A stretch of 64,000 bases of DNA. Source: Mobula hypostoma. Lineage: Eukaryota. The stretch's first letter is position 1, and each line of letters opens with the position of its first letter. The position numbers and the translations under genes were made by a program. Below are positions 3,170 to 63,666 of the stretch, one piece after another. The notes beneath the pieces were generated by a model. It saw only the letters and a program-made list of their open reading frames with translations. It ran no database searches and was not told the DNA's origin. The DNA is taken from the NCBI RefSeq assembly GCF_963921235.1, contig NC_086097.1, positions 24,058,001 to 24,122,000 on the forward strand. Reading direction: 5' to 3'.

Positions 3170-3365
3170 CAAGCAGTCAATGTGCATCTATAGTGGGAAT
3201 AAACAGTCAATGCTTTGGGCTCAATGAGTCCTGATTAGGTCTCTCAGACCAAAACATCAACTGTTTATTCCCCTCCATAGGTGCTGCCTGATCGGCTGAG
3301 TTAGTCCAGCATTTTGTGTATGTTTGTTAAGATTTCCAGCATCTTCAGAATGCCTGGTGTTTATG
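3170..3365. mobile_element. Degenerate Penelope-derived fold-back short element
   Basis: Inverted arms (gcatctatagtgggaataaacagtcaatg / catcaactgtttattcccctccataggtgc) around a decayed hammerhead-like centre gtcctgatt...ccaaaacatcaactg. Confidence 0.6.
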
Positions 3366-5703: not shown

Positions 5704-8018
5704 GAACATAGAACATAAAATAGTACAGCACAGTACAGGCCCTTCAGCCCACAATGTTGTGCCGACCCTCAAACCCTGCCTCCCATATAAGCCCCCACCT
5801 TAAATTCCTCCATATACCTGTCTAATAGTCTCTTAAACTTCACTAGTGTATCTGCCTCCACCACTGACTCAGGCAGTGCATTCCACGCACCAACCACTCT
5901 CTGAGTAAAAAAACCTTCCTCTAATATCCCCCTTGAACTTCCCACCCCTTACCTTAAAGCCATGTCCTCTTGTATTGAGCAGTGGTGCCCTGGGGAAGAG
6001 GCGCTGGCTATCCACTCTATCTATTCCTCTTATTATCTTGTACACCTCTATCATGTCTCCTCTCATCCTCCTTCTCTCCAAAGAGTAAAGCCCGAGCTCC
6101 CTTAATCTCTGATCATAATGCATACTTTCTAAACCAGGCAGCATCCTGGTAAATCTCCTTTGTACCCTGTCCAATGCTTCCACATCCTTCCTATAGTGAG
6201 ATGACCAGAACTGGACACAGTACTCCAAGTGTGGCCTAACCAGAGTTTTATAGAGCTGCATCATTACATCGCGACTCTTAAACTCTATCCCTTGACTTAT
6301 GAAAGCTAACACCCCATAAGCTTTCTTAACTACCCTATCCACCTGTGAGGCAACTTTCAGGGATCTGTGGACATGTACCCTGAGATCCCTCTGCTCCTCC
6401 ACACTACCAAGTATCCTGCCATTTACTTTGTACTCTGCCTTGGAGTTTGGCCTTCCAAAGTGAACCACCTCACACTTCTCCGGGTTGAACTCCATCTGCC
6501 ACTTCTCAGCCCACTTCTGCATCCTATCAATGTCTCTCTGCAATCTTCAACAATCCTCTACACTATCTACAACACCACCAACCTTTGTGTCATCTGCAAA
6601 CTTGCCAACCCATCCTTCTACCCCCACATCCAGGTCGTTAATAAAAATCACAAAAAGTAGAGGTCCCAGAACAGATCCTTGTGGGACACCACTAGTCACA
6701 ATCCTCCAATCTGAATGTACTCCCTCCACCACCACCCTCTGCCTTCTGCAGGCAAGCCATTTCTGAATCCACCTGGCCAAACTTCCCTGGATCCCATGCC
6801 TTCTAAATTTCTGAATAAGCCTACCGTGTGGAACCTTGTCAAATGCCTTACTAAAATCCATATAGATCACATCCACTGCACTACCCTCATCTATATGCCT
6901 GGTCACCTCCCCAAAGAACTCTATCAGGCTTGTTAGACACGATCTGCCCTTCACAAAGCCATGCTGACTGTCCCTGATCAGACCATGATTCTCTAAATGC
7001 CTATAGATCCTATCTCTAAGAATCTTTTCCAACAGCTCTCCCACCACAGGCGTAAGGCTCACTGGTCTATAATTACCCGGACTATCCCTACTACCTTTTT
7101 TGAACAAGGGAACAACATTCGCCTCCCTCCAATCCTCCGGTACCATTCCCGTGGACAACGAGGACATAAAGATCCTAGCCAGAGGCTCAGCAATCTCTTC
7201 TCTCGCCTCGTGGAGCAGCCTGGGGAATATTCCGTCAGGCCCCGGGGACTTATCTGTCCTAATGTATTTTAACAACTCCAACACCTCCTCTCCCTTAATA
7301 TCAGCATGCTCCAGAACATCAACCTCACTCATATTGTCCTCACCATCATCAAGTTTCCTCTCATTGGTGAATACTGAATTGAAGTATTCATTGAGGACCT
7401 CGCTCACTTCCACAGCCTCCAGGCACATCTTCCCACCTTTATCTCTAATCGGTCCTACCTTCACTCCTGTCATCCTTTTTATCTTCACATAATTGAAGAA
7501 TGCCTTGGGGTTTTCCTTTACCTCACTCGCCAAGGCCTTCTCATGCCCCCTTCTTGCTCTTCTCAGCCCCTTCTTAAGCTCCTTTCTTGCTTCCCTATAT
7601 TCCTCAATAGACCCATCTGATCCTTGCTTCCTAAACCTCATGTATGCTGCCTTCTTCCTCCTGACTAGATTTTCCACCTCACTTGTCACCCATGGTTCCT
7701 TCACCCTACCATTCTTTATCTTCCTCACCGGGACAAATTTATCCCTTACATCCCGCAAGAGATCTCTAAACATCGACCACATGTCCATAGTACATTTCCC
7801 TGCAAAAACATCATCCCAATTCACACCCGCAAATTCTAGCCTTATAGCCTCGTAATTTGCCTTTCCCCAATTAAAAATTTTCCTGTGCTCTTTGATTCTA
7901 TCCTTTTCCATGATAATTATAAAGGCCAGGGAGCGGTGGTCACTGTCCCCCAGATGCTCACCCACTGAGAGATCTGTGACCTGACCCAGTTCATTACCTA
8001 GTACTAGATCTAGTATGG
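5704..8018 (-). mobile_element. CR1-clade LINE, 5'-truncated and young; ORF2 (APE C-terminus + reverse transcriptase) with one nonsense codon
   Basis: ORFs 6547-7965 and 5869-6543 are in the same frame, separated by a single TGA. Motifs [56 protein letters not shown]. (CTATGTT)n-type 3' tail at ~5704-5720. Possible TSD CATTTTA at 5697-5703 / 8019-8025. Confidence 0.95.
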
Positions 8019-8597
8019 CATTTTATTTAATTTATTTTCTGATATAATATGGTAAAGGACTTTCCAGCCCAATGAGCCGATGACACCCGATTACAACCAG
8101 GAGACCATTTCAGCTACTAAACCTTTGGAATGTGGGAGGAAGACGGAGCACACAGAAGAAACCCATGTGTTCACAGGGAGAAGATACCAACTCCTTACAG
8201 ACCCCAGCTGCCAGCACTGTAACAGCATTACATGAACCACAGTTCTACCATGCCTCCCCTATTGTATAGTTCCATCAAGTCAACCACCCCCTACCCCGCA
8301 ACCTTCACCATTCCGAAGTAAACAAACCTAACCTATCCAGTCTCCATCTCAGGCAATACCCAGAAGAATCTCCTCTGTGCTCTTGCCCAAGTACCTTCTC
8401 CCTATAGTGTAGCAAGCACTACACTAGTGGGGTAATTAAGGGTTATGGGGGAAAGGCAGGTAGGTGGAGATGAGTCCATGGCCAGATCAGCCATGATCTT
8501 ATTGAATGGTGAAGCAGGTTTGATGGGTCAGATGGCTACTCCTGCTCCTATTTCTTATGTTCTTCTGCACATAATTCTCCAGCTATGGCCTGACATT

Positions 8598-18455: not shown

Positions 18456-20610
18456 ATTAGATTAGATTAGATTAGATTCAACTTTATTGTCATTGTGCCG
18501 AGTACAGATACAAAGCCAATGAAATGCATTTAGCACCTGACCAGAAATGCAAAGAATAGTGTTATTTACAAAATAACTGCGAATAAAAAAAGTGCTACAG
18601 CACATAAATATAAAAGTACTGAGACAGTACAATATGGGTGCAATACTGTTCAGCGCTGTGATGAGGGGTTCAGCAGTGTCACAGCCTCAGGTGCCTGCTG
18701 GTGTGGGAGCGGAGGCTCCTGTAGTGCCTACCGGATGGGAGGAGAGGAGAAAGTCCATGGCTAGGGTGAGATGCATCCCTGATAATGCTTTTCGCCGTGC
18801 CCAGGCAGTGTTTATGGTAGATATTCTCAATGGTTGGCAATTGGGTGCTGATAATCCACTGGGCGGTTTTCACCACACGCTGGAGTGCTTTGCGGTCTGA
18901 TACGGGGCAATTGCCATACCACACTGAGATGCAGTTGGTGAGTATGCTCTCAATGGTACAGCGGTAAAAGTCTGTCAGTATCCTGAGACAGAGATGAGCT
19001 TTCTTCATGCTCCGCAGGAAATAAAGGCGCTGTTGTGCCTTTTTGATCAGGATGGAGGAGTTCAGGGACCAGGTGGGATCTTCGGAAATGTGGACACCAA
19101 GGAATTTGAAGCTTGATACACTCTCCACTACAGTTCTATTGATGTAGATTGGGACGTGAGTTTGACTCCTGGCGTGCCTGAAGTCCACAATGATCTCCTT
19201 GGTCTTCTGGGTGTTAAGGGCCAAATTGTTGTCAGCACACTACGCAGCCAGGTGCTGGACCTCATCCCTGTAGGCCGTCTCATCATCCCCTCTGATCAGA
19301 CCAACCACCGTGGTGTCATCTGCGAATTTGATTATGGAGTTAGAACCATGTACAGGATCGCAATCATAGGCGAAAAGGGAGTACAGAAGAGGGCTCAGCA
19401 CACAGCCTTGAGGCATGCCGGTGTTCAGGGTGAGAGTGGAGGAGGAGAGGTTGTCTAACTTAACAGATTGGGGTCTGTTAGTCCAAGGTCCAATTGCAGA
19501 GGGATGAGCTGATACCAAGCTGGCGAAGTTTGGTGATCAGCTTGGAGGGGATCACAGTATTGAATGCTGAACTAAAGTCAATGAACAGCATTCTGACGTA
19601 AGAGTTGGGGCTGTCTAGGTGGGCCAGGGCAGAGTGAAGTGCCAAGGAGATGGCATCCTCTGTTGACCTGTTGGTGCAATAGGCAAATTGATGGGGGTCC
19701 AGGGTAGAGGGCAGACAAGATTTCAAATGTGATAGAACCAGTTTCTCAAAGCACTTTGCAATGATGGGGGTGAGTGCAGCTGGGCGGAAGTCATTCAGGC
19801 CCGTGGCAGTGGAATGCTTCGGCACTGGCACGATGGTGGCAATCTTGAAGCCTGTGGGGACAACTGCCTGGGCCAGGGACAGATTAAAAATATCCGTGAA
19901 GACCCTGGCCAACTTCCCTGCACAGAGTCTGAGCACACGGCCAGATATTCTAACCAGACCAGCTGCCTTCCGTACATTCACCCTGCTCAGGGTGGCGCAA
20001 ACATCGGAGGTGGAAAGTGAGAGAAGCAGTTCACCAGGTGGGAGATCCGCTTTGAGGGTGACCTCCTTGTTCTCTTGGTCAAAGTGAGCGTAGAAGTAAT
20101 TGAACTCATCAGGGAGGGAAGCAGAGCTGGAAGGGGGCACAGTACTAGGTGGTTTGAAGTCTGTAATGACCTGTATGCCATGCCACATGCGCTGGGGGTC
20201 CGAGGAGTTGAAATGCTCCTCGATTCTCTGTTTGTATATGTGTTTAGCCTGAGAGATTCCCCTCCTTAGGTTGGCCCTGGCTGAGCTGTAAGCCTCCCGG
20301 TCTCCAGACCTGAAGGCTGAATCTCTGGCTTTGAGCAGGAGGTGAACTTCTCTGTTCATCCATGGTTTCTGATTGGGGAAAACTTTTATTTGTTTTTGTG
20401 ATGTCACTCTATCTACACACTTGTTGATGTGCTCAAGGACAGAGTTGGTATATAAATCAATGTTAATCTGAGAGTCTGTGGTGGCATGGGCAGCAAGCGT
20501 GTTCCAGTCTGTGTGCTGGAATTGGTGCTGAAGAGCAGAGTCAGCCCCCTCCAGCCAGATCTTCATAGTCTTCATTGTGGGTTTCACACGTTTAATGACC
20601 GGACTATACT
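18456..20610 (-). mobile_element. Rex1/Babar-clade LINE, 5'-truncated, frameshifted RT
   Basis: ORF pieces 19478-20587, 19240-19518 and 18679-19224 with LDPHQFAY, RSTEDAI, MLFIDFSSAFNT, PQGCVLSPLLYSL, IIKFADDTTVVGLI, KKAQQRLYFLR; (TCTAA)n 3' tail at 18456-18478. Confidence 0.93.
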
Positions 20611-22000
20611 TCGGTCCTCTTTGAGGGGGTCAGCACTGGAAAAAGTGGTTAGCTACAAATTCCTGTTTGTCAACATCTCAGAACATTGATCCTGGTAGAT
20701 GCCCAACATATTGATCCAATCACAAAGGAGGCATGCCAATGGCTATTCTTCTTTAGGATCTGAGGAGATTTAGTATGTCACCAAAGACTCTAGCAAATTT
20801 CTAAAGATGTACGGTGGAGCGAATTCTGATCAATTGCATTACCACCTGGTGTGGAGGCTCCAATGCAGAGAATCTGAAAAAGCTGTAGAGGTTCCAGGCT
20901 CAGCCAGCTCTATCACGAGCACTAGCCTCCCAATCACCATGGACATCTTCAAAAGACAGTGCCTCAAGAAGGCAGCATCCGTCACTGGGGACCCTCACCA
21001 TCCAGGACATGCCTTCTTCTCACCTGCCTTCAGGGAGCAGGTACAAGAACCTGAAGACACACATTCAATATTTCAGGTTTCAGGTTTAGGGTTAATATCA
21101 CCGGCACATGTCATGAAATTTCTTAACTTAGTGGGAGTAGTAGGGTGTAACACATGATAATACAGGAAAAAATAGGCAAACCAATTACAGGAAGTATATA
21201 TGTATATATATGTATATTAAATAGTTAAATTTAAAATAGTGCAAGAATAGAAATAATAAAAGCAAGGAACAGCTTTTTCCCCTTTGCCATCACATTTCTG
21301 AACAGTTCATGAAACCATGAGCACCACCTCTCTAGTTTCTCTCTTTTTCCTTTTTAAATCTTTTTATTGAATAAGTATACAAAAAGGTAAGCCATATAGG
21401 CACTAATACACTGTTAGAATATAATAAAATTACAGAAGATATTAATACAGAAAAAAAAAGTGATACAAACAATGTAATTTAAACATAACATACTAAGGTA
21501 ACATAATAGTATACTAATTTTTATATATATATATATATCAATAGAGAAAAGGAAAAAAAAACCCAAAAGAAAACCCACCGTGCAACTAACTAAAAGCAAA
21601 GCAAAGCAATGGGCTAACTTGGAACCAAGTAGAGTTAAAGAACTTAAAATCACGTCCTCAAACCCAACCTCCATTAAAAACAGTAAAAAAAACAAGAAGG
21701 GTATATAAATGTGGAGCAAAAAAGAGAAGAAAAAAAAATTACATTAAATGAAAATATTGAATAAAAGATCTCCAGGTCTGTTCAAATTTAAGTGAGGAAT
21801 CATAAAGATTGCTTCTAATTTTCTCCAAATTCAAGCATAATATCGTTTGAGAAAACCAATCTCTCTTTTTGTACTACTTGTTTATTTTTGATGTATTTTT
21901 GTTTTAACCTAGGGTAATTTTATGCACTACGCTGTACTGCTGCTGCAAAACAAATTTTCTTGACATATGTCCGTGATAAAAAAAACAATCTGTTTCTCAT
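20611..22000 (+). mobile_element. Older Rex1-like 3' fragment (its 5' part is at ~18400-18455), split by several insertions
   Basis: KTKELxxDFRK at 18400-18440 continues after 20610 with the SYKFLxVNISE region and later LPITMDIFKRQCLKKAAS..DPHHPGH. Confidence 0.7.
21349..21859 (-). mobile_element. L1-clade LINE 3' fragment with 11-bp TSD
   Basis: Minus-strand translation WFSQTILCLNLEKIRSNLYDSSLKFEQTWRSFIQYF (fish-type L1 ORF2 end); AATAAA and A-rich tail; TSD TCTCTCTTTTT at 21338-21348 / 21860-21870. Confidence 0.75.
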
Positions 22001-22696: not shown

Positions 22697-22794
22697 TGTG
22701 TATTGAAGTAAGCTATCTCTGACAGCACCCTTCAATACATTATAGGATTTGCTTCTTGTTTTACTGGGAATTAAAAGCTGAAGAAAATTGTTTA

Positions 22795-23700
22795 TAAACA
22801 CAAGAGATTCTGCAAATGTTTGAAATCCGGACCAACACACACAAAGTGCTGGAGGAACTCAGCAGGTCAGGCCGACATCTATGGAAATGAATTAACAGCC
22901 AACGAAAGCCGTGACAGTTCTTCAGGTCTGGAAAGGAAGGAGGAAGATGCCAGAATAAAAAGATAGGAGGAGGGGGAAAGAGGACGAGCTAGAAGATGAT
23001 AAGTCAAGTCAGGTAGGTGGGAAAGGTAAAGGGCTGGAGAAGAAGGAATCTGATAGGAAAGGAGAGTGAACTTTGGGAGAATGGGGGTGGGGGGCAGTGA
23101 TCGGCAGCTGAGGAGGAGAGATAAGAGACCAGAGTGGGAATAGAAGAAGAGGGAAGGGGAAGGAAAAATTACCGGAAGGAGAAATCGATGTTCATCCCAT
23201 CAAGTTGGAGGCTACCTGGACAAAATATGAGGTGTGCTTCTCCATCCTGAGAGTGGTCTCATCGTGGCAGAAGAGGAGGCCATGGACCGACATGTCGGAA
23301 TGGGAATGGAAATAGAAATTAAAACTTTTGGCCACAGGGAAATTTTGCTTTCAGTAGATGGAGTGGAGGTACTCAACAAAGTGAACCCTCCCACCCCCCC
23401 CAATTTACGGCAGGTCTCACCAATATAGAGGAGGCCACATTGGGAGCACGGAATACCACAGAAGACCCCGAAAGATTCTCAGATGAAGTGTAGCCTCATC
23501 TGAAAGGACTGTTTGGGGTCCTAACTGGAGGTAAGGGAGGAGGTGAACGAGCAGCTGTAGCATCTCTGTCACGTGCAGGGGCATGCGCCAGGGGGGAGAT
23601 TAGTGGGGAGAGGTGAATGGACAAGGGAATCACATTGGGAGTAATCCTTGTGGATTTGGGGAGCGAGGGAGGTAGGCATGTGCTTGGTGGTAGGATCTCA
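22795..23700 (-). mobile_element. Penelope-like (Neptune-type) element 3' portion with GIY-YIG endonuclease remnant
   Basis: Minus-strand 23468-23401 translates GVFCGIPCSQCGLLYIGETCRKL; followed by a pyrimidine-rich 3' region and the pLTR-like end. Confidence 0.8.
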
Positions 23701-25814
23701 TTGAAGATGGCAGAAGTTGCAGGAAATGATGTGTTGGGAGTGGAGACTCATGGGGTGGTAGGTTTGCTTAGTAATGCCCCAAGTTCTGTTGCTAAGGGCA
23801 GGGATGATTGTTGTGTAAATCAGTGACATTGTCACACGTGGGAATGGTACTGAAGGAAACGACAACCACTCAGAGAAGAATTTCGTCCTGAAGTACCCAG
23901 TCTAAGTGGAAATGTGCCAGTGTAGTGGTTAGCACAACTTTTACAGCGGTTCAATTCCCACTGCTGTTTGTAGGGAGTGTGTATATGGGTCCCTACAGGT
24001 GCTTTGGTTTCCTCCCACATTCCAAAGAGATACAGCTTGGGGTTAGTTAGTGAACTGTGGGCATTCTATATTGATTCCAGAAGCATGGCAACACTGTAGG
24101 CGCACCCCGGCACATCCTCGGGCTGTTTTTTTCTGGGAATGAAGGGGTTAACATATAATTCCGGGAATGAAAGGGTTAACATGTGAGGAGCGATTGGCAG
24201 CTTTGGGTGTGTACTCACCGGAATTTAGAAGAATGCATGGGGATCTCATTGAAACCTACTGAATGTTGAAAGGACTAGGGTGGATAGGGTGGATGTGGAG
24301 AGAATGTTTCCTGTGGTGGGAGTATCCAGACCTAGAGGACACAGCCTGAAAACTGAGGGGGTGTCCCTTTGGAACAGAGGTAAGGAGGAATATTTTCAGC
24401 CAGAGCATAGTAAATCTGTGGAATGTTCTGCCATAAACTGCGGTGGAGACCCAGTCTTTGCGTATATTTAAGGTGGAATTTGAACGTTTCCTGATCGATC
24501 AGGGCATCAAAGGATATAGCAAGAATGCAGGTGTATGGGGTTGAGTGGGATCTGGAATCAGCCATGATGGAATGGCGAAGCAGACTTGATGGGCTGAATG
24601 GCCTAATTCTGCTCCTGTGTCTTAGGGTCTTATGGTTAGTTGTTGATGCAAATAACACAGTTCACTGTATGTTTCGATGTTTTGATGTACATATGATAAA
24701 TAAAGCTTAGCTAATATATTTATCTATATAAATTTCCAGGCTTTCACTCGAAATGTGTTGCTTTAAAACCCCAGTACATCCTCGGACTGTGTCGGTCATT
24801 GACGCAAACAACACATTTTATTGTATATTGTTTTGATGTACATGTGAACATAAAGGGTGCTCTGGTTTCCTCCCCCATTTCAAAGGCTTACAGGTTAGTA
24901 AGCTGTGTGCTTGCTACGCTGGTGCTGAAAGCACTTGTGGGCTACCCCAGCATACCTTCAACACAAGCGATGCTTTTCACTGTACATTTTGATGTTTCAA
25001 TCTCCACGTGACAAATAAAGCTAACCTAATCTATCACCAGAAATGGGTCACTTTCAAGTCTGCGAGACAGCCCTCATGCATAATTTGCACATCATAAACA
25101 GACACTGCACGCCCCAGTCTCTCAGCATCTGTGTGCCTTCGCTATCGTTCAGCAGGCGTAAGAACATTGGCCATTGTTGTATTCGCCTCTACTGTCTCAG
25201 CTCTGTTAGCCTCACCTTCACTAAGTTGGCAGCTGATGATCTGAAGTGGGATCTGGGAAGACAACAGGTGTGGGTTCACATGGATCTCCATGGAAACAAT
25301 GGGGAAGTGTGTATAAATCGCACAAATTTATCAAAGACACCAAAGCTTTGAATAAATGATAAGTTATTTTGCAAGATCTGAAATACCTCAGGCAAAAGGA
25401 TGTCATGCACCACATCCCCCTCCAGATTCAGTCACATCTCATCATTATAAATTCCAATAAAACCTGATGTTCAACTGGACTTGTCAAGAATGCTTCATAT
25501 CATCAGCCCCTCGCTCTTAAATCATAATGAATTGTACAACAAAATAATGACTTATTAAAGTGTATTGGGTTTCAAAACTTGTGCTAATTAGAGTTGACTG
25601 TATACTTGTTTTGATTTTTGAAAGCTATTACGGTGTCATATTAATTATGGAAAGTGCATCATGATGAGGTCCCATTTGGAGCAGAGTTTATTTGATGAAG
25701 AAAATCACATCCTCTCTCCATGTTCTTTATGAAGTAGGTAAGTAAAAGGGAAATGAAATGTGCATGTTCAGCAGACAATGTCTGACGACAGAAGCACAGC
25801 CAACGTACGGTCGT

Positions 25815-27830: not shown

Positions 27831-29172
27831 ATTTAAGTGAATTGTAATGTTGGGGGAGCCTCTATCTCAGGTAGTGTGTTCCAGATTGTGATCACCCACT
27901 GGGTGAAAACAGTTGTTCCTCCGACTCCCCCAAGCCTCTTTGTTGAACCTATCCCCCCTGCGCTTGAACACCTCTATAACAGGGAAAACTTTTCTTGCAT
28001 CTCATCAATTCAGTGAAATGTGGCTCTCAAGGTATGTCCCATTGTCTCCACGTTCCAGGGTCTGTTGTGATCATTTACTGATGCAGGGTGGTGTTGAAAA
28101 AAGTGTGCCCAGGTTGGTACACATCTGCTTTGCAGCTGTTCAGTATAAAGCCCTTTCTCTTAGAGTTCAGATGGAGATAAAGAATACTTAAAATGCAGAT
28201 AAAATATCCAAACATGTACAACAGGTCTGGCAGCAGCTGTGGAGCAAGAATCATAGAATGTTAAAGTATAGTACAGACCCTTCAGCCCACAATGTAGTGC
28301 TGAGCCTTTAACTACTCCAAGATCAATCTAACCATTCCCTCCCAAAGAGCCCTCCATTTTTTTTCATCCATGTACCTTTCTAAGAGTTCCTTCAATGTCC
28401 CTAATATACCTACCACCACACCTGGCAGCATGACCCTTGCATCGAACACTCACTGTGTGAAAAACCCTACCTCTGACATCCCCCTTATACTTTACTCCAA
28501 CCACCTTAAAATTATGCCCCCTCGCATTTGATGTTGCTACCCTGTGGAAAAAGTCTCTAGCTGTCCACTCAGTCTTTTACCTTTGTCAAATCACCTTTCA
28601 ATGTAATGATCCTGCATCATTTCTGGGTGTGTGTGTGTGTGTCTATCTGTCTCTGTCAGTAAGTGTCAAGGTGCTGACAGGCATCTATGCACATTCCCAC
28701 TTCTGCGTACTTTACGTTAAGTGCTTAAGAGCAAACTGTCTCCTCATCATCTCTGCTCTGTATTCAGCTGGTGCACCACTGAGGTCAAATTCCCTGTTTA
28801 GCCAAAGGCCAAATGAAATGCTCTGATTGACACTGAAGCATGCTTATTTTTTATGAACTACAAGGAAAGGCTGAGATACAAGATCCCTGGCTTGTGTGTA
28901 AAGAAATAGCGCTGATTTAACATTGTAATTGACAACCCGTTCCTGTGTGAGGTGGGGGAGGTGAGGCACAGATTGACCCTAAGTTTATTAAAGTTATGTA
29001 TCTATTGATTATTCATTGCAATAATGTTCACCTTTAATCATTGCCTATTAAAGTACCACTATACCACAGAAAGGGAGCAGACCCTATCACATCATCCCCT
29101 TTCTCCCTATTGAGGAGCTCTGTTTATATGACATCAGAATCAGGTTTATTATCATTGACAAATGTCTTGAAA

Positions 29173-34669: not shown

Positions 34670-35480
34670 ACATCTTTCTGCCCTCCTTCCTGGCACGTAT
34701 ACCTGCAAGTGTGACAAGTGCTACACCTACTCCTTCACTACCCCCGCCCCCAACACCACCACTCAGGGCCTCGAACAGTCCTTCTAGGTGAGGCAACATT
34801 TCACTTGTGAGTCTGTCAGGGTCATCTACTACCTTCGGTGTTCCCCATGCAGCCCTTCTACATTTGTGAGATCCAACATAGATTGGGAGACTGCCTCGTC
34901 GAGCACCTTTGCTCAATCCACCACAAATGGCAGGATACCCTGGTAGCCACCCATTTCACTTGACTTCCCATTTCCATTCTGATATGTCTGTCCAGGACCT
35001 CCTCTACTTTCACGATGAGGCCACATTCGGACCTGGGGAGTAACAGCTCATATTGCTTCCGGGTCGCCTCCAACCTGGTGGCATGAACATCGAGTCTCTA
35101 ACTTCCAGTAATGTATCACCCCTCCTGCTTCTCTTCTTTTCCCATTCCCCGTGCTGTTTTCCCTCTAGCCCCTCCTCTTCTCCTCACCTATCCATTACTT
35201 CCATCAGGTGACCCTCCTCCTTCCCTTTTATTTTCATCCACTCTCCTCTCCTCTTGGATTCCTTCATTTTTAGCCCTTTACCTCTTCCACCTATCACCAC
35301 CCAGCTTCTCACTTCATCCTCCCCTCTCCCACCCACCACCTCTCCTCTCACCTGGTTTCATTTTTAGCTCGTTCTCTCCAGTCCTGACGAGAGGTCTTGG
35401 CCCAAAGCATCAACTGCTTACTCCCCTCCATAGATGCTGCCTGACTTGCTGAGCTCCACCAGCTTTTTGTGTGTGTTGTA
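34670..35480 (+). mobile_element. Penelope-like (Neptune-type) element 3' portion with GIY-YIG remnant and decayed hammerhead
   Basis: PGTYTCKCDKCYT..VRQHFTCESVRVIYYLRCSPC..HRLGDCLVEH; QPGGMNIE; ends cagtcctgacga-gaggtcttggccc-aaagcatcaactg. Confidence 0.8.
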
Positions 35481-43349: not shown

Positions 43350-43632
43350 TAAGTATACAGGCCATTGCAGCCTCCCGTAATCCTGTGCATTCAAAGTTCA
43401 AAATTCAAAGTAAATTTATTATCATAATACACATATGTCACTAAATACAACCCTAAGATTCATGTTGTTGCAGGCATTCACAGTCAATACAATGGGACAC
43501 ATGAAACACAACAAACCACCAACATGCAAAAGACAGCAAATAGTTCAAATGCAATAAATAAATAAATACACACACACACACACACACAAAACATGAGTTG
43601 TAGAGTCCTTGAAAGTGAGTTCATAGGTTGTG

Positions 43633-43719
43633 TACAACACACACAAAATGCTGGAGGAACTCAGAAAGCCAGGCAGCATCCATGGAAAAAAAGTACAGTC
43701 GACGTTTCGGGCCGAAACC
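43633..43719 (-). mobile_element. Penelope-derived short insertion with ~14-bp TSD, inside a Rex-like fragment (~43390-44130)
   Basis: TSD gt(t/c)cataggttgtg at 43619-43632 / 43720-43733; minus strand starts within the hammerhead (cggcccGAAACGTCgactg). Confidence 0.75.
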
Positions 43720-45412
43720 GTCCATAGGTTGTGGAATTAGTCTAGCGTTGGGGTGAGTAAAGTTATCCACGCTGGTCCAGAACCCTCAAGGTGAAGGGTA
43801 ATAATTCCTGAAATTGGTGACGTGGGACCCCAAGCTCCTGTACCTCCTTCCTGCTGGCAGCAACGAGAAGAGAGGGTGGCCTGGATGGCGGAGGTCCTTG
43901 ATGAAGGTTGCTGCTTTCCTGCGACAGTGCTCCTTGTAGATGTACTCAATGGCGGGGAGGGCTATCCCTGTGATGGACTGGGCTGTATCGACACATACTG
44001 TAGCTCAGCGTTGGAGCCTCCATACCCAGGCTGTGATGCAACCAGTCAGAATGCTCTCTGCTGTATATTTATAGAAATATGCTAGAGTCCTTGGTGACAC
44101 ACGAAATTCCTTTAAACTCCTAACTAAGTAAAATACTAACTAACTAGGCCTTTACAGCTGACTGTGGCAATGAATTCCACAGATTCACCACCCTCCGGCT
44201 AAAGAAATTCCTCCTCAACTCTGTTCTAAAGGAAAGGCCTTGTATTCTGAGGCTGTGCCCTCTGGTCCTAGAATCCCCTACTATAGGAAACATCCTCTCC
44301 ACATTCACGCTATCTAAGACTTTCAATATTCAATAGGTTTCAATGAGATTCCCGCCATTTTTCTATTGTCCCCTGCCACCTCCCACCCCCTCCATTGTCC
44401 TTACTGACTCTGGTTTAATACTGCTTGGCAGAAATATCTCACCATTCGTCTGTGTGACGTTCTTTTGGCCTGTTCTATTATTAGCAACGCTTAATAAGAT
44501 GATCTTGGCTTATGCAGACTGTCACTATTTCATTAGGTATCTGATACTTCATACTTGGGTAAGCAATACAATGTGTTTTGAGACTGCTTTCAGATAGTGA
44601 AGGAATTCACACCAGTTTATCTGTGCTCCCTCCTCCCCGCCAACTGACACCATCAGTGCTTCTGGTCAGGATTTTTGACGAGCCTATTCTGTGAGTTTTG
44701 ACTGAAAGCTGCTGAAAATGCAGCATCCTCAATAGACCAATGTGTCTGACATACAAATTCTTCCCAGCAGGGGTCACTGGTTAGCAGCTGGGAAGTTGGG
44801 GGGTGGAGGCATGCCAGCTAATTTTATAGCCCCATTCCAATCTTAAAGGGACAAAGGTTTAATGTTCAGTCTTTCTCAATCTTAATCAAAATAAGCTTAA
44901 TTAATCAGTCAGTGTAGCTTTTAACCCACTCTAAAATCAATCTAACCCTTCCCTCCTCCATAGCCCTCTATTTTTCTGTCATCTGTGTGCCTATCTAAGA
45001 GTTTCTTAAATGCCCTTTATATATCTGCCTCTACCCGCTCCTGCCGGCACGTTCCATGCATCCACCACTCTCTGTGTATAAACTGATGATGTCAGATGCC
45101 TCTGACATCTTTGGTAACAATGTGAATTAAAGGAGAGAGACACTCACTTTCTTCAACATAGGACATTACAGCACAGCTCACGATGTTGTGCCAACCTTTT
45201 CTCCTGCTCTGAGATCAATCTAACTCTTCCCTCTTACATGGCCCTCATTTTTTCTATCATCCACACGCTTATCTAAGAGTTTCTTAAATGTTCCAAATGT
45301 ACCTGCGTCTACCACCACCCCTAGCAGGATGTTTTCACACACTCACTCTCTGTGTAAAAAACTCTTTCTCTAGAGCTCCGAGGTACCCTGGAAGGTGACA
45401 GCAGACACACGC

Positions 45413-45748: not shown

Positions 45749-47036
45749 CTGCAGTGATAAAGACAGGTGGCATGCTCAAGTCATTAGTTTTAAATTACGT
45801 ATTACACTTAATAAGATCTGATTACCATATGTTAATTTGGGAGTCCTGTTAATGAGCCCACCAATATGAAAGGCTTTAGAACTCGCAGATAATTACATAG
45901 TACACCATTTAATGGGGTTGGATTTCTAACATTAGATCAAAAGAAACCACAAACAATCAACTAAATACATAAACATAGACATAAGATAGTCACAAAGGCA
46001 ACCAGGAGTGAAAGGAACGTCTTTTATCAGTGGCGGTGAAGTGGAACTTGCAACATCACGCAGTAGTTGCGGCAAATATCGCAGGGACATATAAAATAAG
46101 TTAGATGCAACATAATGAAGGTATAATCTAGAAATAAAAATGTCTCATATGATACCTCTCCCATTGTCAGGACAGATATTCAGTATTCATGGCGGATATG
46201 TATTTGAAGGTGATTGCAGAAAAGTAGAGGGGAGTGTCAGGGTAGTTTGGTTACATAGAGAGTGGTGGGTGTGACGGTAACGCACCATTAAGCCGGATGC
46301 CAACCGCCGTAAAACAAGATACAGACAGAGAGTGGTGGGTGCATGGAACATGCTGGCTGGGGGTGGGGGTGGGGGTTGTTAGTGACAGATATATTAGAAT
46401 CATGTTAGATAGGCACATGGATAAAAGGAAAATGGAGTTCTATGTGGGCGGGAAGAGTTAGATTGATCTCGGAGTAGGTTAAAAAGTTGGCACATCATTG
46501 TGAGCTCAAGGCCTTGCACTGTAATGTTCCATGTCAGAAGTAGTGTTTGTACACACAGAGAGTGGTCGCTACATGGAATGCCCTGCTGGGGTGGTGGTAG
46601 AGGCAGATATATTAGGAACATTTAAAAGGCTCTGAGATAGGCACATGAATGATAGAGAAATTGGGGACTACGTGGGAGGGAAGAGTTAGATTGGTCTTAA
46701 ACTAGGTTGTAAGGTTGGCATCACATCATGGGCCAAAGGAACTGTACTGTGCTATATATTCTATGTTCTAAAGGCATCAAGGAATATAGAAACGGGAAAA
46801 TAATTTACAGATAAACTATGATCTAATTGAATGGTAGAACAGGCTCAAAGGACTGAATGGTCTTCCCTCTCTTTTGGTTACATGTGCATCTACTACCATG
46901 CTGGCTGAGGGAAGACATATCCCAGCATGCCATTTTCCGGCTCCTGTGGCTAAAGTGGTGCCTTTGCCAAGTTGCAGCTCAGTTTAAGTTTCAAGTACAT
47001 CCTTTACCAAATGAAAGGAGTAATAAAGGCGAAGCT

Positions 47037-47263
47037 AACAACAGGAATTCTGCAGATGCTGGAAATTCAAGCAACATACATCAAAGTTGCTGGTGAACGC
47101 AGCAGGCCAAGCAGCATCTATAGGAAGAGGCGCAGTCGACGTTTCAGGCCGAGACCCTTCGGTCAGTCCTACCGAAGGGTCTCGGCCTGAAACGTCGACT
47201 GCGCCTCTTCCTATAGATGCTGCTTGGCCTGCTGCGTTCACCAGCAACTTTGATGTATGTTGC
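47037..47263. mobile_element. Penelope-derived fold-back element: perfect 93-bp inverted repeat, 14-bp TSD
   Basis: Arms 47071-47163 and 47171-47263 are exact reverse complements with a 7-nt loop CAGTCCT; TSD ATAAAGGCGAAGCT at 47023-47036 / 47264-47277. Confidence 0.92.
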
Positions 47264-48806
47264 ATAAAGGCGAAGCTGCTGTGCCTGCTTCTGTGAGTCA
47301 GCGCCTTTGGGAGAGGAGGTGGATGATCATTTTGTGCAAGTGAAAAGAAGCACTGATGTGTGCCAGCTCAGATGTATCTGAGACTAATTTCTCACAGCAG
47401 CCTGAAAGGGGGCTGGGGGGTGGGAGTGGGCGTAGGTTGCCAGAAGCAGCACACCAAATGCACCCAGCTGCTTCCAACAGAAGTTTGGCAGCTTATCCCA
47501 ACTTGCCTATCCCCCCTTCACTCCCACCCTGTCCTCACCTACCACAGCCAACTCTTCATGGTTGCAACGGATAATTCATGGCACAGGAGGAGGCTATTTA
47601 TAAGACCATAAGACATAGGAGGAGAATTAGGCCATTCAACCCATCGAGTATGTTCCACCACTCCATGATGGCTGATTTATTATCCTCTCAACACCATTCT
47701 CTTGTCTTCTCCCTATAAACTTTGATGCCTTACCAATCGAGAACCTATCGACCTCTGCTTTGAATATAAAGAATACAGATTAGCTTTATTTGTCATATGT
47801 ACATTGAGACACACAATAAAATGTGTCATTTGCATCAAATCAATAGACAATAGACAATAGGTGCAGGAGTAGGCCATTCGGCCCTTCGAGCCAGCACCGC
47901 TATTCACTGTGATCATGGCTGATCATCCACTATCAGTATCCAGTTCCTGCCTTATCCCCATAACCTTTGATTCCACTATCTTTAAGAGCTCTATCCATCT
48001 CTTTCTTGAAGGCATCCAGAGACTTGGCCTCCACAGCCTTCTGGGGCAGAGCATTCCATATATCCACCACTCTCTGGGTGAAAAAGTTTTTCACAAATCA
48101 GCATTGTGTCAACAAATAACACAGCCCACAAATGTCGCCATGTTTCCAGCACCAACGCAGCGTGCCCACAACTCACTAACTCTAACAATACATCTTTGGA
48201 ATGTGGGAGGAAACCAGATCACCAAGAGGAAACCCACACAGTCACGGGGAGAATGTTCAAACTCGTTACAGACCGCAGTGGGAATAAAGCCCCAATCTTT
48301 TGGCTTGTATTGGACCACTACACCACCATGCTGCCCCAGTGACTCAGTCTCCGCAGCTGTCTGTGGCAAAGAATTCCACAGATTCACCGCTCTCTTCAGC
48401 TCTGTTTTAAAGAGTCGTTCTTCTATACTGAAGCTATGCTTGTATTCTGAGGCAGAATATCCAGCCCATCACTTTCATGCTGGTCAAACAAAAAGAGCCA
48501 GCCCACGGAAGCGTAGCACAATGCTTTACAGCACAAGTGATCCAGGTTCAATTCCCGCTGCTGCCCGTAAGGAGTTTGTACATTCTCCCCATGACTTCGG
48601 GGGTTTCCTCTAGGTGCTCTGGTTTCGTCCCACAAGCCAAAGACTTACCGGTTAGTAGCTTAGTTGATCATTGCAAATTGTCCTGTGATTAGGCTGGGAT
48701 TAAATCGAGCGTTGCTGGGCGGTGTAGCTAGTTGGGCCAGAAGGGCCTGTTCCGTGCTGTATCTCAGTAAATAAATAAATCCTGCAGCACTCAGACCAGA
48801 GTCATG

Positions 48807-48989: not shown

Positions 48990-49320
48990 CTTTGGCTCTT
49001 TGGAGTTTGCAGATGGTGTCCATTTCAAAGTAACATTTCTTTGGCCCTTAGGGGTTCAGAGATGGTGTCTATTATTGAAATAGACACCATCTACGAACCC
49101 CTCAGAGGCAAAGAAATGCAAACCAATAAAATTCAAAGGTCAACTGAAGAAGTAGCAAAGTGAACAGGGGCTTTATAAATGTGAGCATCCAGAGAGAATC
49201 ACCAAAAACTGAGCACTGAGGATATCACCTCGACTGGTGATGAAACGTCTGAAGGCTAGTTGCCAAGCTCGGCGAGTACTGCAATTACCTCAACCTGAGC
49301 TACCAATATTCACTACCATC
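48990..49320 (+). mobile_element. Penelope-like element 3' end (second family) preceded by inverted partial copies
   Basis: attgaaatagacaccatctacgaacccctcaga = IEIDTIYEPLR (PLE endonuclease C-terminus-like); reverse-complement copies at 48990-49028 and 49034-49073; hammerhead motif downstream. Confidence 0.65.
49213..49252 (+). ncRNA. Minimal type I hammerhead ribozyme motif
   Basis: gca-CTGAGGA-t-ATCACC-tcgact-GGTGAT-GAAAC-GTC-tga: intact CUGANGA and GAAA boxes, perfect 6-bp stem II, loopless palindromic stem III (ACGT), GUC cleavage triplet; stem I is weak (2 bp). Confidence 0.65.
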
Positions 49321-52300: not shown

Positions 52301-53683
52301 CCCGAGGGAAATGTAACAGGAAAAATAGACGGTGTTCACTGCACACTTCTCACAGTGGCTGCGTCTGAGATGTGTCTAATTTGTCGAGAAAAGCCAGATA
52401 AAGATTAATTGCCTGTTTGATTAGTAAAGAGACTGTAATAATTTCCAGTGTTTTGTTAGCAACTTCTTATCAAGTGGAATCAGAGAATGAAAGATAATTT
52501 AGGCCATTGCATTCATTCAGAATTTTCTTACAGGGTCTGCCCTGGAATCTACATTTCCTTTTTGTATTCTTCGTTTTAAGTTTTTTTTTCTCTCTGTCAG
52601 GCCGTAACAATGCTTAAAAAGGACAGCCCAGTGGATTCTGGACTCATCTGTCTTAAGGACTGTTCCACATCCGTTTTATTTTAAATGTTTTTTGATCTAG
52701 TTTCACACTGGTCCGGTATAATTCCATGCTCTTACCAGCCAGGCCAGCCTGAGGCTGTTTCACCTCGGAAAGCCGTGTATTATTCTGAAGCAAACAAACA
52801 CACGCGCGTCAGTGAAGAAATCGGGAAGGAGATCTCCCCATCCATCCATCTCCCCCGCTCCGTCACTGGGGTCAGTCAGTCATAAAACACCTGCTGCTTT
52901 CTGGACGATATCAGCTACTAGTGCAGTCTAGGGATTGACCGTAACTCTTTGCAGGTCTGGCTGTATGAACTGATCGCAGCCAACCGGCAATAACATGATC
53001 TCGGTTCTTTCTGTGCAGTTAGACCTTTGCTTTATGCCAACTAGGAAACACTGTTTAATGTTCCTTTTACACAAAGCACCCTGAAGACAGGCGGGATTAA
53101 TGCCCAGTGTTCAGGAAGTCACAGACTCCTACAGCACGGAAACAGTCCTTTAGCCCACTGAGCCTGCGCTAATCATCAAGATTCCACTTACACTAATTCT
53201 GCTTTATTCTCTCCATATTCCCGTCATCTCCCCTGCGACTCTACCACTCAACGACACCCTCGGGGCGATTTACAGCGGCCAATTAACCCACTACACACAG
53301 AATTCGTTGCTGATTTTGTGCCTCTTTTTACTTCTCAGTTAATAGATGTTTAATCTAATCTTGGCATCAGCCTCAGTCCAGCGGAATCGCGCTCTGAGTC
53401 ACGTGGGTTCGGCAAATAGTTCTGGCTGCCGATTCAGAGCGGCACTGAGGAGAGGTTCGGCTTCGAAGCTAACTGAGGACTCTGCAAGTTTATAGAGGGT
53501 CACTCAGGGGAAATGGAGGTTCTGATTTAGTAAAAGGGTTGGGAGATGGACTGAGATGTAGAACAGCATTCACAGGAGTGAGTTACAGGCTGGTAAACGC
53601 TGAAAGATTCATTTAATCGTGAATCTGTGTAGACTGTCTTCTTATTTTCCAGCTCTTATTCTGGCTTCTTCCCCCTTCCTTTC

Positions 53684-53721
53684 CAGTCCTGAGGAAGGGT
53701 CTCGGCCCAAAACGTTGACTG
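53684..53721 (+). ncRNA. Decayed minimal hammerhead ribozyme in a Penelope 3'-end fragment (~53645-53825)
   Basis: CAGTC-CTGAGGA-a-GGG-tctcgg-CCC-aAAAC-GTT-GACTG: 5-bp stem I and stem II intact, G12>A. Confidence 0.6.
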
Positions 53722-56700: not shown

Positions 56701-58701
56701 CAAAGCAACCGTACAAACCAGGAGTGGGAAAATGGAGGTGACTACAGGAACCAAGAGCTGTGAGGTAATGTTGCTGCTCTGTAAAACTCTGGTTAGATCA
56801 CAACTGGAGTATTATGTTCAATTCTGGTTGCCTCATTATAGGAAGGGTGTGGAAGTTTTAGAGAGGGTGCAGAGGATGCCTGTATTACATAGTATGAGGA
56901 TAGGCTGAGCGAGTGAGGCCCTTTTTCTTTGGAGTGAAGGAGGATTTGATAGAGATGTAGAAGATGATAGGAGGCATTGATAGAGTGGATAGCCAAAGAC
57001 TATCTGATAAGTATTGCCTAGGATGACAATATATATATAAAACTGTTGATGTTTTAGGACAGCACCCTTCTTTGGGACTCATGAATGATTTCAGGCTGAA
57101 ACATTTGCTCTATTCCTCTCCATTGATGCTGCCTGACCTGATGAGTTACTCCAGCATTTTGTGAGTCTTACTCTGGATTTCCAGCACCTGCAGAATCTCT
57201 TGTGTTTATACTTTTAAGGCAAGTGGAGGGGGAGATATCATGGGTGATACACAGTGAGTGATAAGTTCCTGGTGGGAAGAGGCTCATACATTAGGGACAT
57301 TGAAAAAGATGGAGGGTTATGGGCAATGTAGGAGTGAGGGGTTAGAATGATAGTGAAGGAGGAACAGTATATATAACCCATATGGTACTGGAGCAAGCCT
57401 ATCAGGGGATTCTCTGAGGACCTCCCCCCCCCTCCCCCCACCCTACTGGGTAACCGTAGACCAGGAGCGTGGGGTTGTAGTACAGCCAGAACTTGAGAAA
57501 GATGTGCAAGTCCTCCCCATGAGCGAGTGCAGTTCCACCGGCTGCTCCGGTTTCCTCCCATATTCCGAAGAAGCACGAGTTCATGGTTAGTGATGTTGGC
57601 ACCGGAAGCGTGGCGACACTTACGGGCTGCCCCCAGTAAGTGTGTCGGTCGTTGAGGCAGAGCGATGTATTCCGCCGATCGTTTTCATACGCATGCGAGA
57701 AATAAAGCTACTCTCTCAGTACCAGCACTGGATCCAGATGGCCTGAGACAGAACTGTACACCTGGAGAGAGGAGCCTGGGTGGGATTGGATGTTAGAAGA
57801 CCAGGGAAAGGTGGTGTTTGGTTGTGGCACAGTTATCTCTGTTCCGTAACACATCCTCCCACTGGTGAATGGCATCAGATAGGAGTCCTCCTCTGAAGGC
57901 GCCAGAATATCTTGTTCACATGAATCCCGAAGTGTTTCGCATCTAGTTCATTAAAAATAAAGCGATGCATTTTTTAAATAAGAAGTTCCTGGGTGACGAG
58001 CTTATTTAAAACCCGTATATTAACGTCGAATTCCACACTCAAGGCAGTGTCTTGCTGCGGTGGAAGAGCGCCATGGCATAGTGTGCAAGGTGGAGGTCCC
58101 CCCACACCGGCTTCCGGAGCTGATTCCCTCCGCAGACCCCGGGAAAGGGAGTGGGTGTGTGTGCTGGGGTGGGGAAGGGTTGAAGTGATGGAGGGAGGAG
58201 TTGTGGATGAAGGGATTGGGGGTGTGGTGTGGGTGCAGGTGCACGGGGTTCATTGCAAGAAGGAAGTCCCCGTCAGAAGCCGCTAGCATCCGCTCCACCT
58301 TCTCCTTCACCGACCCCCGCTGGATTTAGGGTTGGGATTGGTGGGCAGCTATTCAATCTTATCACTCCGTCGTTTGTTCTGCCCATTTCCAATTACACCG
58401 CCCCGCCGTTCGGAGTGGAAACATTGGCAAAGTCTTTTTTTCTCTGTCAAATTAAAACAAAAGGCTCAATTTCTCTCTTTCAACGCTGCTGCTGTTCGCT
58501 CTTCACACAATGCCTGTGTGCGCCGATCTGCTCCGCCGTACCAGAGCGTTCACAGGGTTAATCATCTTCCGTCTGAGATGCTGGGAACGATGCTCGAAGG
58601 AGAGAGCGTCTAAATAGTTCTGCACTGCATCAGTCAGAAGATTGCTACTGGAGGGAGCAGCAAAGATCTTGAGAGCTGCCAGTTTTTTTTAGATTCCCAA
58701 C

Positions 58702-59259: not shown

Positions 59260-59348
59260 ATGGGCTCCACACCACCATGAACCTTCCCTCTCGCCTCGGA
59301 CTCGCGCTGTGTGCCTCCGGACTGACAGAGCGCCGACCATGCACCTGA
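59260..59348 (+). promoter_or_regulatory. Two upstream ORFs in the nrxn3-beta leader
   Basis: uORF1 59260-59280 (MGSTPP*). uORF2 59277-59348 (MNLPSRLGLALCASGLTERRPCT*), context accaccATGa, out of frame and overlapping the main ATG. Confidence 0.55.
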
Positions 59349-59561
59349 GGATTTTACTGAGTTTCTGGAGCAAGCAATCTGCCTCCCGCTGCTGTGGCCA
59401 AGCGCCCTGGATCTGGTCCCTGACCCTGGGCAGTATCGTCAGCGGCGTATGGAGTTCATCTGGCACTTCGACGCACCATGAGCACCTCTTCCAAGGAAAC
59501 AAGCATCCCTCCGTGCCCATCTCCATCTACCGCTCCCCTGCCTCCCTGCGGGGTGGTCACG
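59339..59561 (+). CDS. nrxn3: Neurexin-3 beta-specific first coding exon (signal peptide + His-rich beta N-terminus); partial CDS, continues beyond the window
   Basis: Translates MHLRILLSFWSKQSASRCCGQAPWIWSLTLGSIVSGVWSSSGTSTHHEHLFQGNKHPSVPISIYRSPASLRGGH. This matches the beta-neurexin signature SVPI(S/A)IYRSPxSLRGGH. The MHLRI start, IVSxVWSSS and HEH motifs are NRXN3-beta-like rather than NRXN1/2. Kozak context gccgaccATG. 74 codons + G are followed by the phase-1 donor ACG|GTGCGT, as expected for splicing to the shared LNS6 exon. Confidence 0.93.
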
Positions 59562-61129: not shown

Positions 61130-61830
61130 GCAATGCTGAGGCATTGGTCAGGCCGCACCTGGAACATGCCGATCGGCTTTGAGCCTCTTATCTGAGGAAG
61201 GATGATTTAACATTGGAGAAGGTCCGGAGAAGCTTTACGAGAATGATCCCGGGTTAACGTACGAGGAGTGGTTAATGGCTCTGGGCCTGTACTCGTTGGA
61301 ATTTAGATGAATGAGGGAGGATCTCATTGAGACCTATCGAATATTGAAAGGCCTACATATGTTGGACGTGGAGAGCAACACACACGAAATGCTGGAGGAA
61401 CTCAGCGGGCCAGGCGGCATCTATGGAAAAGAGTACAGTCGACAGCAGGTCGGCCAGCATTTCCTATGTGTTGCTTGGATTTCCAGCATCTGCAGAATTT
61501 CTCTTGTTTGCGATTGGACGTGGAGGGATACTTCCTATAGTGGGGGAGTCTAGGACCAGAGGACACAGCCTCAGATTACAAGGACGTCCCTTTAAAGCCG
61601 AGATGAGGGATTTCTTTATCCAGAGGGTGGTGAATGTGTGGAATTCATTGCTACAGGTAGCTATGGACGCCAAGTCACTGGGTATATGTAAGACAGGGGT
61701 TGATAGGTTCTTAATTAGTAAGGGTGTCATTAAAGGTAATGGGGAGAAGCCAGGATAATACGGTTTAGAGGGATAATAAATCAGCCATGATGGAATGGCC
61801 TAGTTTTGCTCCTATGTCTTATGGTCGCTT
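61130..61830 (+). mobile_element. CR1 3' fragment interrupted by a Penelope-derived fold-back insertion (61374-61513)
   Basis: CR1 motifs on both sides; TSD TTGGACGTGGAG at 61362-61373 / 61514-61525. Confidence 0.85.
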
Positions 61831-63089: not shown

Positions 63090-63640
63090 AAAAGCTGGTG
63101 GAACTCAAAAATGTCGGCAGCACCTATGCTGAGGACGAGGCCCTTCATCAGAACCTGTTGAAAGAGCTCGGCCCAAATCGACTGCTTGTTCTTCTACATT
63201 GATGCTGCCTGATCTGCTGAGTTCCTCCAGCGTTTTGTGTATGTTGCTCTGGGATTCCAGTAGCTGCTGAATCTCCTGTGTGTACAATGACAGGAGACAT
63301 AAGTGAACACAGTCATAATGATCAGCTGGCCGAGCAGCATCCGTGGAGGGGAAAGAACTGTCAATGTTTCGGGTGGACACCTTGCACAATGTCAGTGGGG
63401 ATTTATCGGCGTTATTGCTACCGTTACTATGCCGACTGAATTCTCTCAGTACATGATATCGACCTGAGACATCGAATGTCCATTTCCACCCGCAGATGCT
63501 GCCAGGCTCGCTGAGTTCCTCCAATTGTTTTCTTTTTTGCTCCGGATTTCTGGATCTGCATTCCCTTGTGCCTTTGCAACGTTAACTCCGCTTCCCACTT
63601 CTAAAAATCTTGCTTGACCTGCTGACAGCGTTTTGCGTGT
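63090..63640. mobile_element. Cluster of degenerate Penelope-derived fold-back elements; similar copies at ~55130-55290 and ~57040-57210
   Basis: Head-to-head arms (gctggtggaactc...cccttcatcag / ctcggcccaaatcgactg...gagttcctccagc). Confidence 0.65.
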
Positions 63641-63666
63641 ACTTTTACGGCATGATCGTTCTGTGA

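Follow-up and report, generated by a model that had tools for sequence, protein, structure and literature searches.

The insertion at 47037-47263 (227 nt) lies in a stretch of 64,000 nt of the Mobula hypostoma genome, referred to here as the window. It is flanked by two identical 14-nt direct repeats (100%), the target site duplication (TSD), which is the sole direct repeat within 46500-47800. The insert contains two arms of 93 nt, which are exact reverse complements with zero mismatches, and the 7-nt centre CAGTCCT between them. A further 34 unpaired nt are present at the left arm only (Table 1). Thus, the 227-bp insertion with its clean 14-bp TSD and the palindrome of 93+7+93 plus 34 unpaired nt, both described in the original prediction, were confirmed, and the empty sites of other species hold a single 14-mer. 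Among the 25 longest of the 33 inverted-repeat pairs of the window, this palindrome is the only long one that is near-perfect; the others reach 70-88%. Another short hairpin was observed at 49034-49118 (40-nt arms, 88% complementary, 5-nt centre). By profile search it is unrelated to the Penelope-like element (PLE) family described below.

Table 1 Features of the insertion and of related copies in the window (positions are those of the window)
Feature	Position	Strand	Basis
Left TSD copy, 14 bp	47023..47036	.	Repeat search; empty sites of X5 and X9 have one copy
PLE tail, 34 nt, left arm only	47037..47070	-	Matches 3' extension of other family copies; published tail of 30-40 nt
Left arm, element end in minus-strand sense, same as right arm	47071..47163	-	Inverted-repeat analysis
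Minus-strand hammerhead remnant: an extra C in the core box, 5' strand of stem I missing	47133..47166	-	Sequence, fold, alignment
Centre, the element's CAG-TC-CT(G) quasi-palindrome: 5' strand of stem I and start of core box; inferred arm junction	47164..47170	+	
Minimal type I hammerhead layout, core box broken, predicted non-functional	47164..47201	+	
Right arm, element end without tail, plus-strand sense	47171..47263	+	Inverted-repeat analysis, alignment
Right TSD copy	47264..47277	.	Repeat search; empty sites
Longer decayed family copy: Zn-linker and GIY-YIG remnant upstream of hammerhead and tail	22792..23814	-	
Second long decayed copy: linker/GIY-YIG remnant, end without tail	34683..35480	+	
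Second TSD-flanked head-to-head insertion: one tail-less and one tailed arm, asymmetric centre GTCGAC with 10-nt filler	61374..61510	.	
Older head-to-head copy, same octamer pivot	57040..57209	.	
Older head-to-head copy, same octamer pivot	63090..63284	.	
Older head-to-head copy: sense arm from octamer, other arm about a dozen bases short	3184..3364	.	

The insert very probably consists of two heavily 5'-truncated, hammerhead-bearing PLE ends in head-to-head orientation, i.e. an inverted PLE insertion. An inverted truncated partner, a tail of 30-40 nt on one end and a TSD were all found. The PLE origin proposed before was supported by longer copies of the window, which continue into a Zn-linker/GIY-YIG remnant. 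A profile built from nine window copies gave 23 matches, of which 21 were grouped into 14 loci and two (28219-28245 and 63578-63646) were left out as isolated fragments. The copies at 2k, 22k and 35k extend on their upstream side into degenerate coding sequence, in which a Cys linker and a GIY-YIG end are recognisable, and they align to the GIY-YIG end of the proteins P0001 and P0002 (tblastn, E 1e-12 to 1e-36). With the 22k piece as query 147 proteins were retrieved, the best three from stingray and shark. The best matches of the linker/GIY-YIG remnants are ray and shark proteins with 63% and 59% identity. Full-length relatives (40-45% identity over the linker) showed RVT_1 followed by GIY-YIG in all three scanned, with scores mostly below the Pfam cut-offs. 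The RT core is absent from the family copies of the window. A Pfam scan of five window fragments gave GIY-YIG in none and one chance match, and P0001 matches PF01541 below the cut-off. A word-index search of proteins with the linker piece of 35k gave two candidates, neither of them significant. P0001 and P0002 are PLE endonuclease remnants annotated as host genes in a stingray gene set, one as mucin-2; these labels are likely an annotation artefact.

The Cys linker, of the form CxxxxCxxC in the family copies, is present at 34683-34853 and in P0001, P0002, P0007 and P0014. According to the available text of Craig 2021 (PMC8557442), such a linker (CX2-5CxxC) between RT and endonuclease marks the Neptune/Nematis group. 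The family is predicted from the linker to belong here, and the vertebrate host suggests Neptune rather than Nematis. The summed contig depth over the arms amounts to 2-8 million compared with 13-16 on the unique flank. This sum does not translate into a number of copies; even so, the family is evidently very abundant. A single 5'-truncated copy without tail and with a clear TSD of 11-14 bp was observed at 43619-43733.

The layout of a type I hammerhead was correctly recognised on the plus strand. Stem I is formed by 47164-68 and 47197-201, GAAA lies at 47189-92 and the cleavage site follows 47196; stems I and II, a palindromic stem III and a UH site are all present when the motif is regarded in isolation. 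Stems I and II appear in the minimum free energy fold of the isolated plus-strand 46-mer, but with z = 0.39, and all four isolated 46-mers examined folded no better than shuffled sequences (z -0.18 to 0.39). The proposed copy on each strand holds in part. The minus strand has the core, but AGGA precedes its CTG, so that the 5' strand of stem I is missing and the molecule folds differently. Hence, there is no full hammerhead on each strand. Furthermore, the symmetry axis does not coincide with the hammerhead, as had been claimed, but lies at the 5' edge of the ribozyme in the quasi-palindrome CAG-TC-CTG. The alteration of the CUGANGA box on both strands of the focal copy was verified: an extra C is common to the two arms, which are otherwise identical as well, and one G is missing on the plus strand. 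The core box of the family is intact, as anticipated, with A>G at 47171 in 94.0% and C>A at 47172 in 91.9% of the X1 depth. Neither the extra C nor the missing G was listed as an indel at 3% or more in the contigs, in which some differences were uncounted.

With Rfam, no hammerhead was detected at the gathering score in the window (0 hits), nor at E<=10 in 46900-47400. The nine hits at E<=10 in the latter region are generic hairpin models (miRNA, sRNA) or noise. For a transcript that extends through stem I, a value of -86.9 kcal/mol was calculated for the hairpin of the arms and one of -8.7 kcal/mol for the ribozyme stems on the same prefix; the arm hairpin formed at all four prefixes tested. 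The ribozyme of the focal copy is therefore predicted to be dead, with a broken core box and a fold buried inside the hairpin. The product is likely a dead-end relic, as it has no ORF, its core is broken on both strands and the ribozyme fold is predicted to be buried. In the long copies (53650-53690, 35345-35385 and 22925-22960) the rest of stem I is immediately preceded by a run of pyrimidines that closes with CAG. This arrangement resembles a splice acceptor; the CAG belongs to stem I as well, and splicing there would change the ribozyme as in the Penelope of Drosophila virilis, for which the 5' end of helix I is described as the end of an intron (PMC4209133, available part). The lead is weak, the upstream region being pyrimidine-rich throughout.

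The reality and age of the insertion were investigated by comparing the window with contigs of four of the 24 sequencing runs listed: X1 from the own species, X5 and X9 from other species, and X10, guessed to be RNA. An empty site with one 14-mer, where 47022 is joined directly to 47264, was found in both runs of other species (X5 record 18 with 9 differences in 769 nt; X9 record 24). In X1, one contig crosses the left junction (46621-47060, depth 16) and another the right junction (47242-47627, depth 13.5), each with 0 differences. Empty sites and junction contigs together show that the insertion is real and younger than the split from both other species; it is recent and specific to the own lineage. 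Thus, the very young age suggested before was borne out. The focal letters at 47131 and 47203 account for about one third of the X1 depth (66-69% differ), but for 2-3% in X5 and X9 (97-98% differ), which suggests the expansion of a young subfamily in the lineage of Mobula hypostoma. Among the contig pieces listed, none crosses the entire hairpin; hence, the 7-nt centre rests on the assembly. An assembly chimera from a fold-back read would agree with this gap. It is nevertheless extremely unlikely, since both junctions occur without differences and in opposite orientations in short-read contigs, although of a run that may be the very sample from which the window assembly was built, and since the TSD is defined by the empty sites.

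Of the 14 family loci, seven are head-to-head (3k, 47k, 55k, 57k, 61k, 63.1k and 63.4k); these counts include five loci that are old and decayed at their outer ends. Three of the seven (47k, 57k, 63.1k) are symmetric at the octamer CAG-TC-CTG. At 63.4k only the sense arm begins there, and 55k joins further down. TSD pairs were found at three of ten loci tried (43k, 47k, 61k), and the two head-to-head loci with clear TSDs, 47k and 61k, each carry the tail at one outer end and lack it at the other. A crude binomial calculation for three of seven at the octamer gave P <=0.002, with a focal copy chosen for this trait and a position range set post hoc; without the focal copy (two of six) P is about 0.02 by hand. 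In the paralogous contigs the sense arm starts at 47164-47180 in 12 of the 15 joints listed (of 645), whereas the end of the other arm is scattered over 47061-47139. Such letters as are listed between the arms are few and represent pieces of the core box. Upstream of the octamer the reference used lacks natural sequence, so that joints with a sense arm starting there are favoured. One arm thus has a start hotspot at the edge of the ribozyme; the mirror axis, by contrast, is not fixed. The claim of a reproducible inversion position therefore stands for a real pivot preference, with three of seven loci symmetric, and fails for the axis as a whole, as the centres differ and one arm is scattered.

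Two side observations concern individual joints. The insertion at 61362-61527 sits inside a LINE-like fragment; one of its arms ends at the palindromic GTCGAC, which holds the hammerhead cleavage site, and the filler looks templated from element antisense. The joint from 47061 to 47173, a paralogous asymmetric inverted junction, has a depth of 937.5 in X10 (guessed RNA) and of 15.5 in own-species DNA, possibly due to a highly transcribed inverted copy elsewhere.

The head-to-head layout of PLEs as such is already known, and a pivot at stem I may be recorded in supplements; the papers named in the following are discussed from their available parts. Craig 2021 (PMC8557442) describes an inverted 5'-truncated copy beside the element and a tail of 30-40 bp, often at one end only. 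Arkhipova 2013 (PMC3846280) reports inverted pLTRs with a 31-bp tail on one of them and TSDs of 8-10 bp in Adineta; head-to-head junctions with palindromes are abundant and are read as self-priming. The focal copy resembles these insertions in its head-to-head ends, junction palindrome, one-sided tail, short TSD and 5' truncation. The layout matches the published architecture point by point, and the 34 unpaired nt correspond to the PLE tail. In contrast to the published insertions, its copies are only 93-127 nt long, without ORF or internal direct pLTR, and its TSD has 14 bp instead of the 8-10 bp in Adineta. A pivot at the 5' edge of the hammerhead is not stated in the available text of either paper.

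For PAc, a Poseidon PLE of Anolis, Frangieh 2024 (PMC11167929) showed that the protein cuts and extends both target strands. RT starts at two adjacent sites bounding the tail, the protein is a predicted dimer, and hammerhead cleavage is dispensable for insertion in vitro. In PAc, as in our family, two 3' ends bounding the tail follow the hammerhead at a distance of about 100 nt. The window family differs by the Cys linker of Neptune/Nematis, and inverted-arm formation is not explained in the available part of that paper. Cervera and De la Pena 2014 (PMC4209133) defined the minimal hammerhead and recorded it also in opposite-strand pairs 100-700 bp apart. The metazoan PLE type I hammerheads share with the focal copy the short stem I, an unpaired base before stem II, a palindromic stem III of four bases and the position in the terminal repeat. 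In the focal copy, however, the core box is broken on both strands, and its motifs overlap at stem I instead of being spaced. Being on opposite strands, they cannot form a hammerhead dimer in one RNA. Non-LTR retrozymes, reported in one chondrichthyan (bioRxiv 10.64898/2026.07.22.740005), are likewise short, non-coding, hammerhead-bearing and derived from PLE ends, but they form head-to-tail tandem repeats, in contrast to the head-to-head pair with TSD and tail. An identity with retrozymes was rejected, because the arms are head-to-head and the only direct repeat around the insertion is the TSD. Nothing specific on this PLE family in cartilaginous fish was found in the literature, and Arkhipova 2013 was the sole direct treatment of the inversion mechanism; most subscription papers, Repbase and supplements were outside the search. 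A pattern scan gave no match in viral contigs and none in metagenome contigs. A shorter pattern matched 17 metagenome loci, which were dropped as chance, as all match little beyond the pattern itself (model E >= 0.003).

We consider it probable, with moderate confidence, that the palindrome originated from two cDNAs, primed from both cut target strands and joined at CAG-TC-CTG. The endonuclease of the element would make a cut with a 14-nt stagger. Of the two 3' ends, one would prime at the outer start site, which includes the tail, whereas the inner site, without tail, would serve the other. Both cDNAs, copied from one source locus carrying the extra C, would stop near stem I, and their 3' ends CAG-GA-CTG would pair with each other. 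With such a template the original product would have been 96+2+96, and the later loss of one G would have turned it into 93+7+93, the 2-nt centre becoming a 7-nt loop. On the plus strand the centre reads CAG-TC-CT, in the same sense as the arm without tail. Fold-back of a strand primed at the tail does not fit by itself, because the centre would then read GA, and fold-back of the tail-less strand alone would leave the tail without a template. Thus, simple first-strand self-priming by itself gives no one-arm tail with the observed loop polarity. A modified version, in which one strand (antisense RNA or cDNA) ending in CAG-GA-CTG folds back and templates its own extension, with one tail trimmed at resolution, as a by-product of each PLE insertion, yields the identical final sequence. 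It corresponds to the published view of junction palindromes (PMC3846280) and to the attribution of the tail to endonuclease resolution (PMC8557442), as far as these texts were available, and 57k repeats the same loop polarity. Copying of one strand from the other is the simpler explanation of why the arms agree perfectly, even in the rare extra C. We nevertheless regard this fold-back as rather unlikely. The trimming would be an additional step that has to hit the inner start site precisely, and a stem of 3 bp closed by a 2-nt loop primes poorly. Many of the joints listed are off by tens of bases, and the centres of 3k and 61k are asymmetric. Moreover, the tail boundaries coincide with the two in vitro RT start sites (PMC11167929, available part). 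Priming from both target strands is favoured over it, because the outer ends are the two natural 3' ends at 47k and 61k, because many junctions are asymmetric and because extension of both strands was shown in vitro for a relative, although a Poseidon and not a Neptune element. Against it counts that the same 93 nt in both cDNAs require two templates or strand displacement. In L1 twin priming, two target strands prime two cDNAs, which are joined by microhomology; there, the inverted piece is a different upstream segment, whereas the arms described here cover the same sequence.

The original prediction considered a separate non-coding fold-back family moving as a unit. The clean TSD, the perfect arms and the three loci symmetric at the same spot would suit a non-autonomous palindromic element centred on the hammerhead and mobilised whole. 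The sequence is, however, continuous with the ends of coding PLE copies, and centres, arm lengths and subfamily letters vary over the seven loci. The scatter of the joints listed on one arm also disagrees, and an RNA hairpin of 93 bp would bury the ribozyme and the inner start site. Mobilisation as a whole is therefore very improbable and, no centre and ends being shared, was largely refuted within the window. Half of the loci are head-to-head, but their centres differ; the palindrome therefore likely arises anew with each insertion instead of being moved whole. A single copy, tailed or tail-less, might also have acquired its mirror arm later, by template switching in host replication or by repair at the quasi-palindrome. 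Palindromes are known hotspots of inverted duplication, according to sources available in part, and the two arms are identical. Both outer ends, however, abut the TSD and match the two natural 3' ends of the element, likewise at 61k, and half of the family loci are inverted, which makes a later origin of one arm equally improbable.

For the joining of two target-primed cDNAs, the question arises why the ends meet at stem I. Self-pairing of the octamer was calculated with -3.5 kcal/mol as DNA (3+3 bp), and 61k has its junction at GTCGAC, the next micro-palindrome. A further 12 micro-palindromes of at least three pairs are present in the same 180-nt reference. Given this number and the weak pairing, the octamer alone does not explain the hotspot. 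Candidates for the stop are stalling of the RT at structure, a discrete RNA end and a splice acceptor. Tentatively, the 5' edge of the PLE hammerhead might be a built-in stop-and-join site, at which RT on both strands would halt at stem I and the cDNA ends would pair, the ribozyme motif serving as pivot of inversions whether or not it cleaves. If this is true, junction polarity in the ray family, which is huge and still active, would offer natural data from which to read the mechanism. The origin of inverted PLE ends and one-sided tails is debated between the self-priming of 2013 and the two RT start sites of 2024. Junction polarity and tail side in young copies, tabulated genome-wide, can tell these models apart. 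The focal copy preserves a single PLE insertion event in very clean form; taken on its own, the locus is a dead, lineage-specific insertion, usable as a presence/absence marker.

Regarding the host gene, an exon at 59339-59560 on the plus strand is 97% identical to the N-terminus of stingray neurexin-3-beta and represents the beta first exon. With a full neurexin-3-alpha isoform, tblastn gave no match to an alpha exon in the window. The hairpin had been placed in neurexin pre-mRNA. For the beta transcript this is not the case, because its first exon lies 12 kb downstream of the hairpin. Based on the known layout of neurexin genes, the hairpin is presumably located in an intron of neurexin-3-alpha. 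In this transcript an intronic dsRNA of 93 bp is possible; similar pairs are common in this PLE family. None of the runs listed for the stretch was marked as RNA; X10 does not reach either of the unique flanks, and its 9 A>G differences are in line with the 9, 9 and 8 of the other runs. Furthermore, long open frames resembling reverse transcriptases of two LINE families were observed on the minus strand at 5869-8022 and 18679-20629, which may be of the CR1 and Rex1 type.
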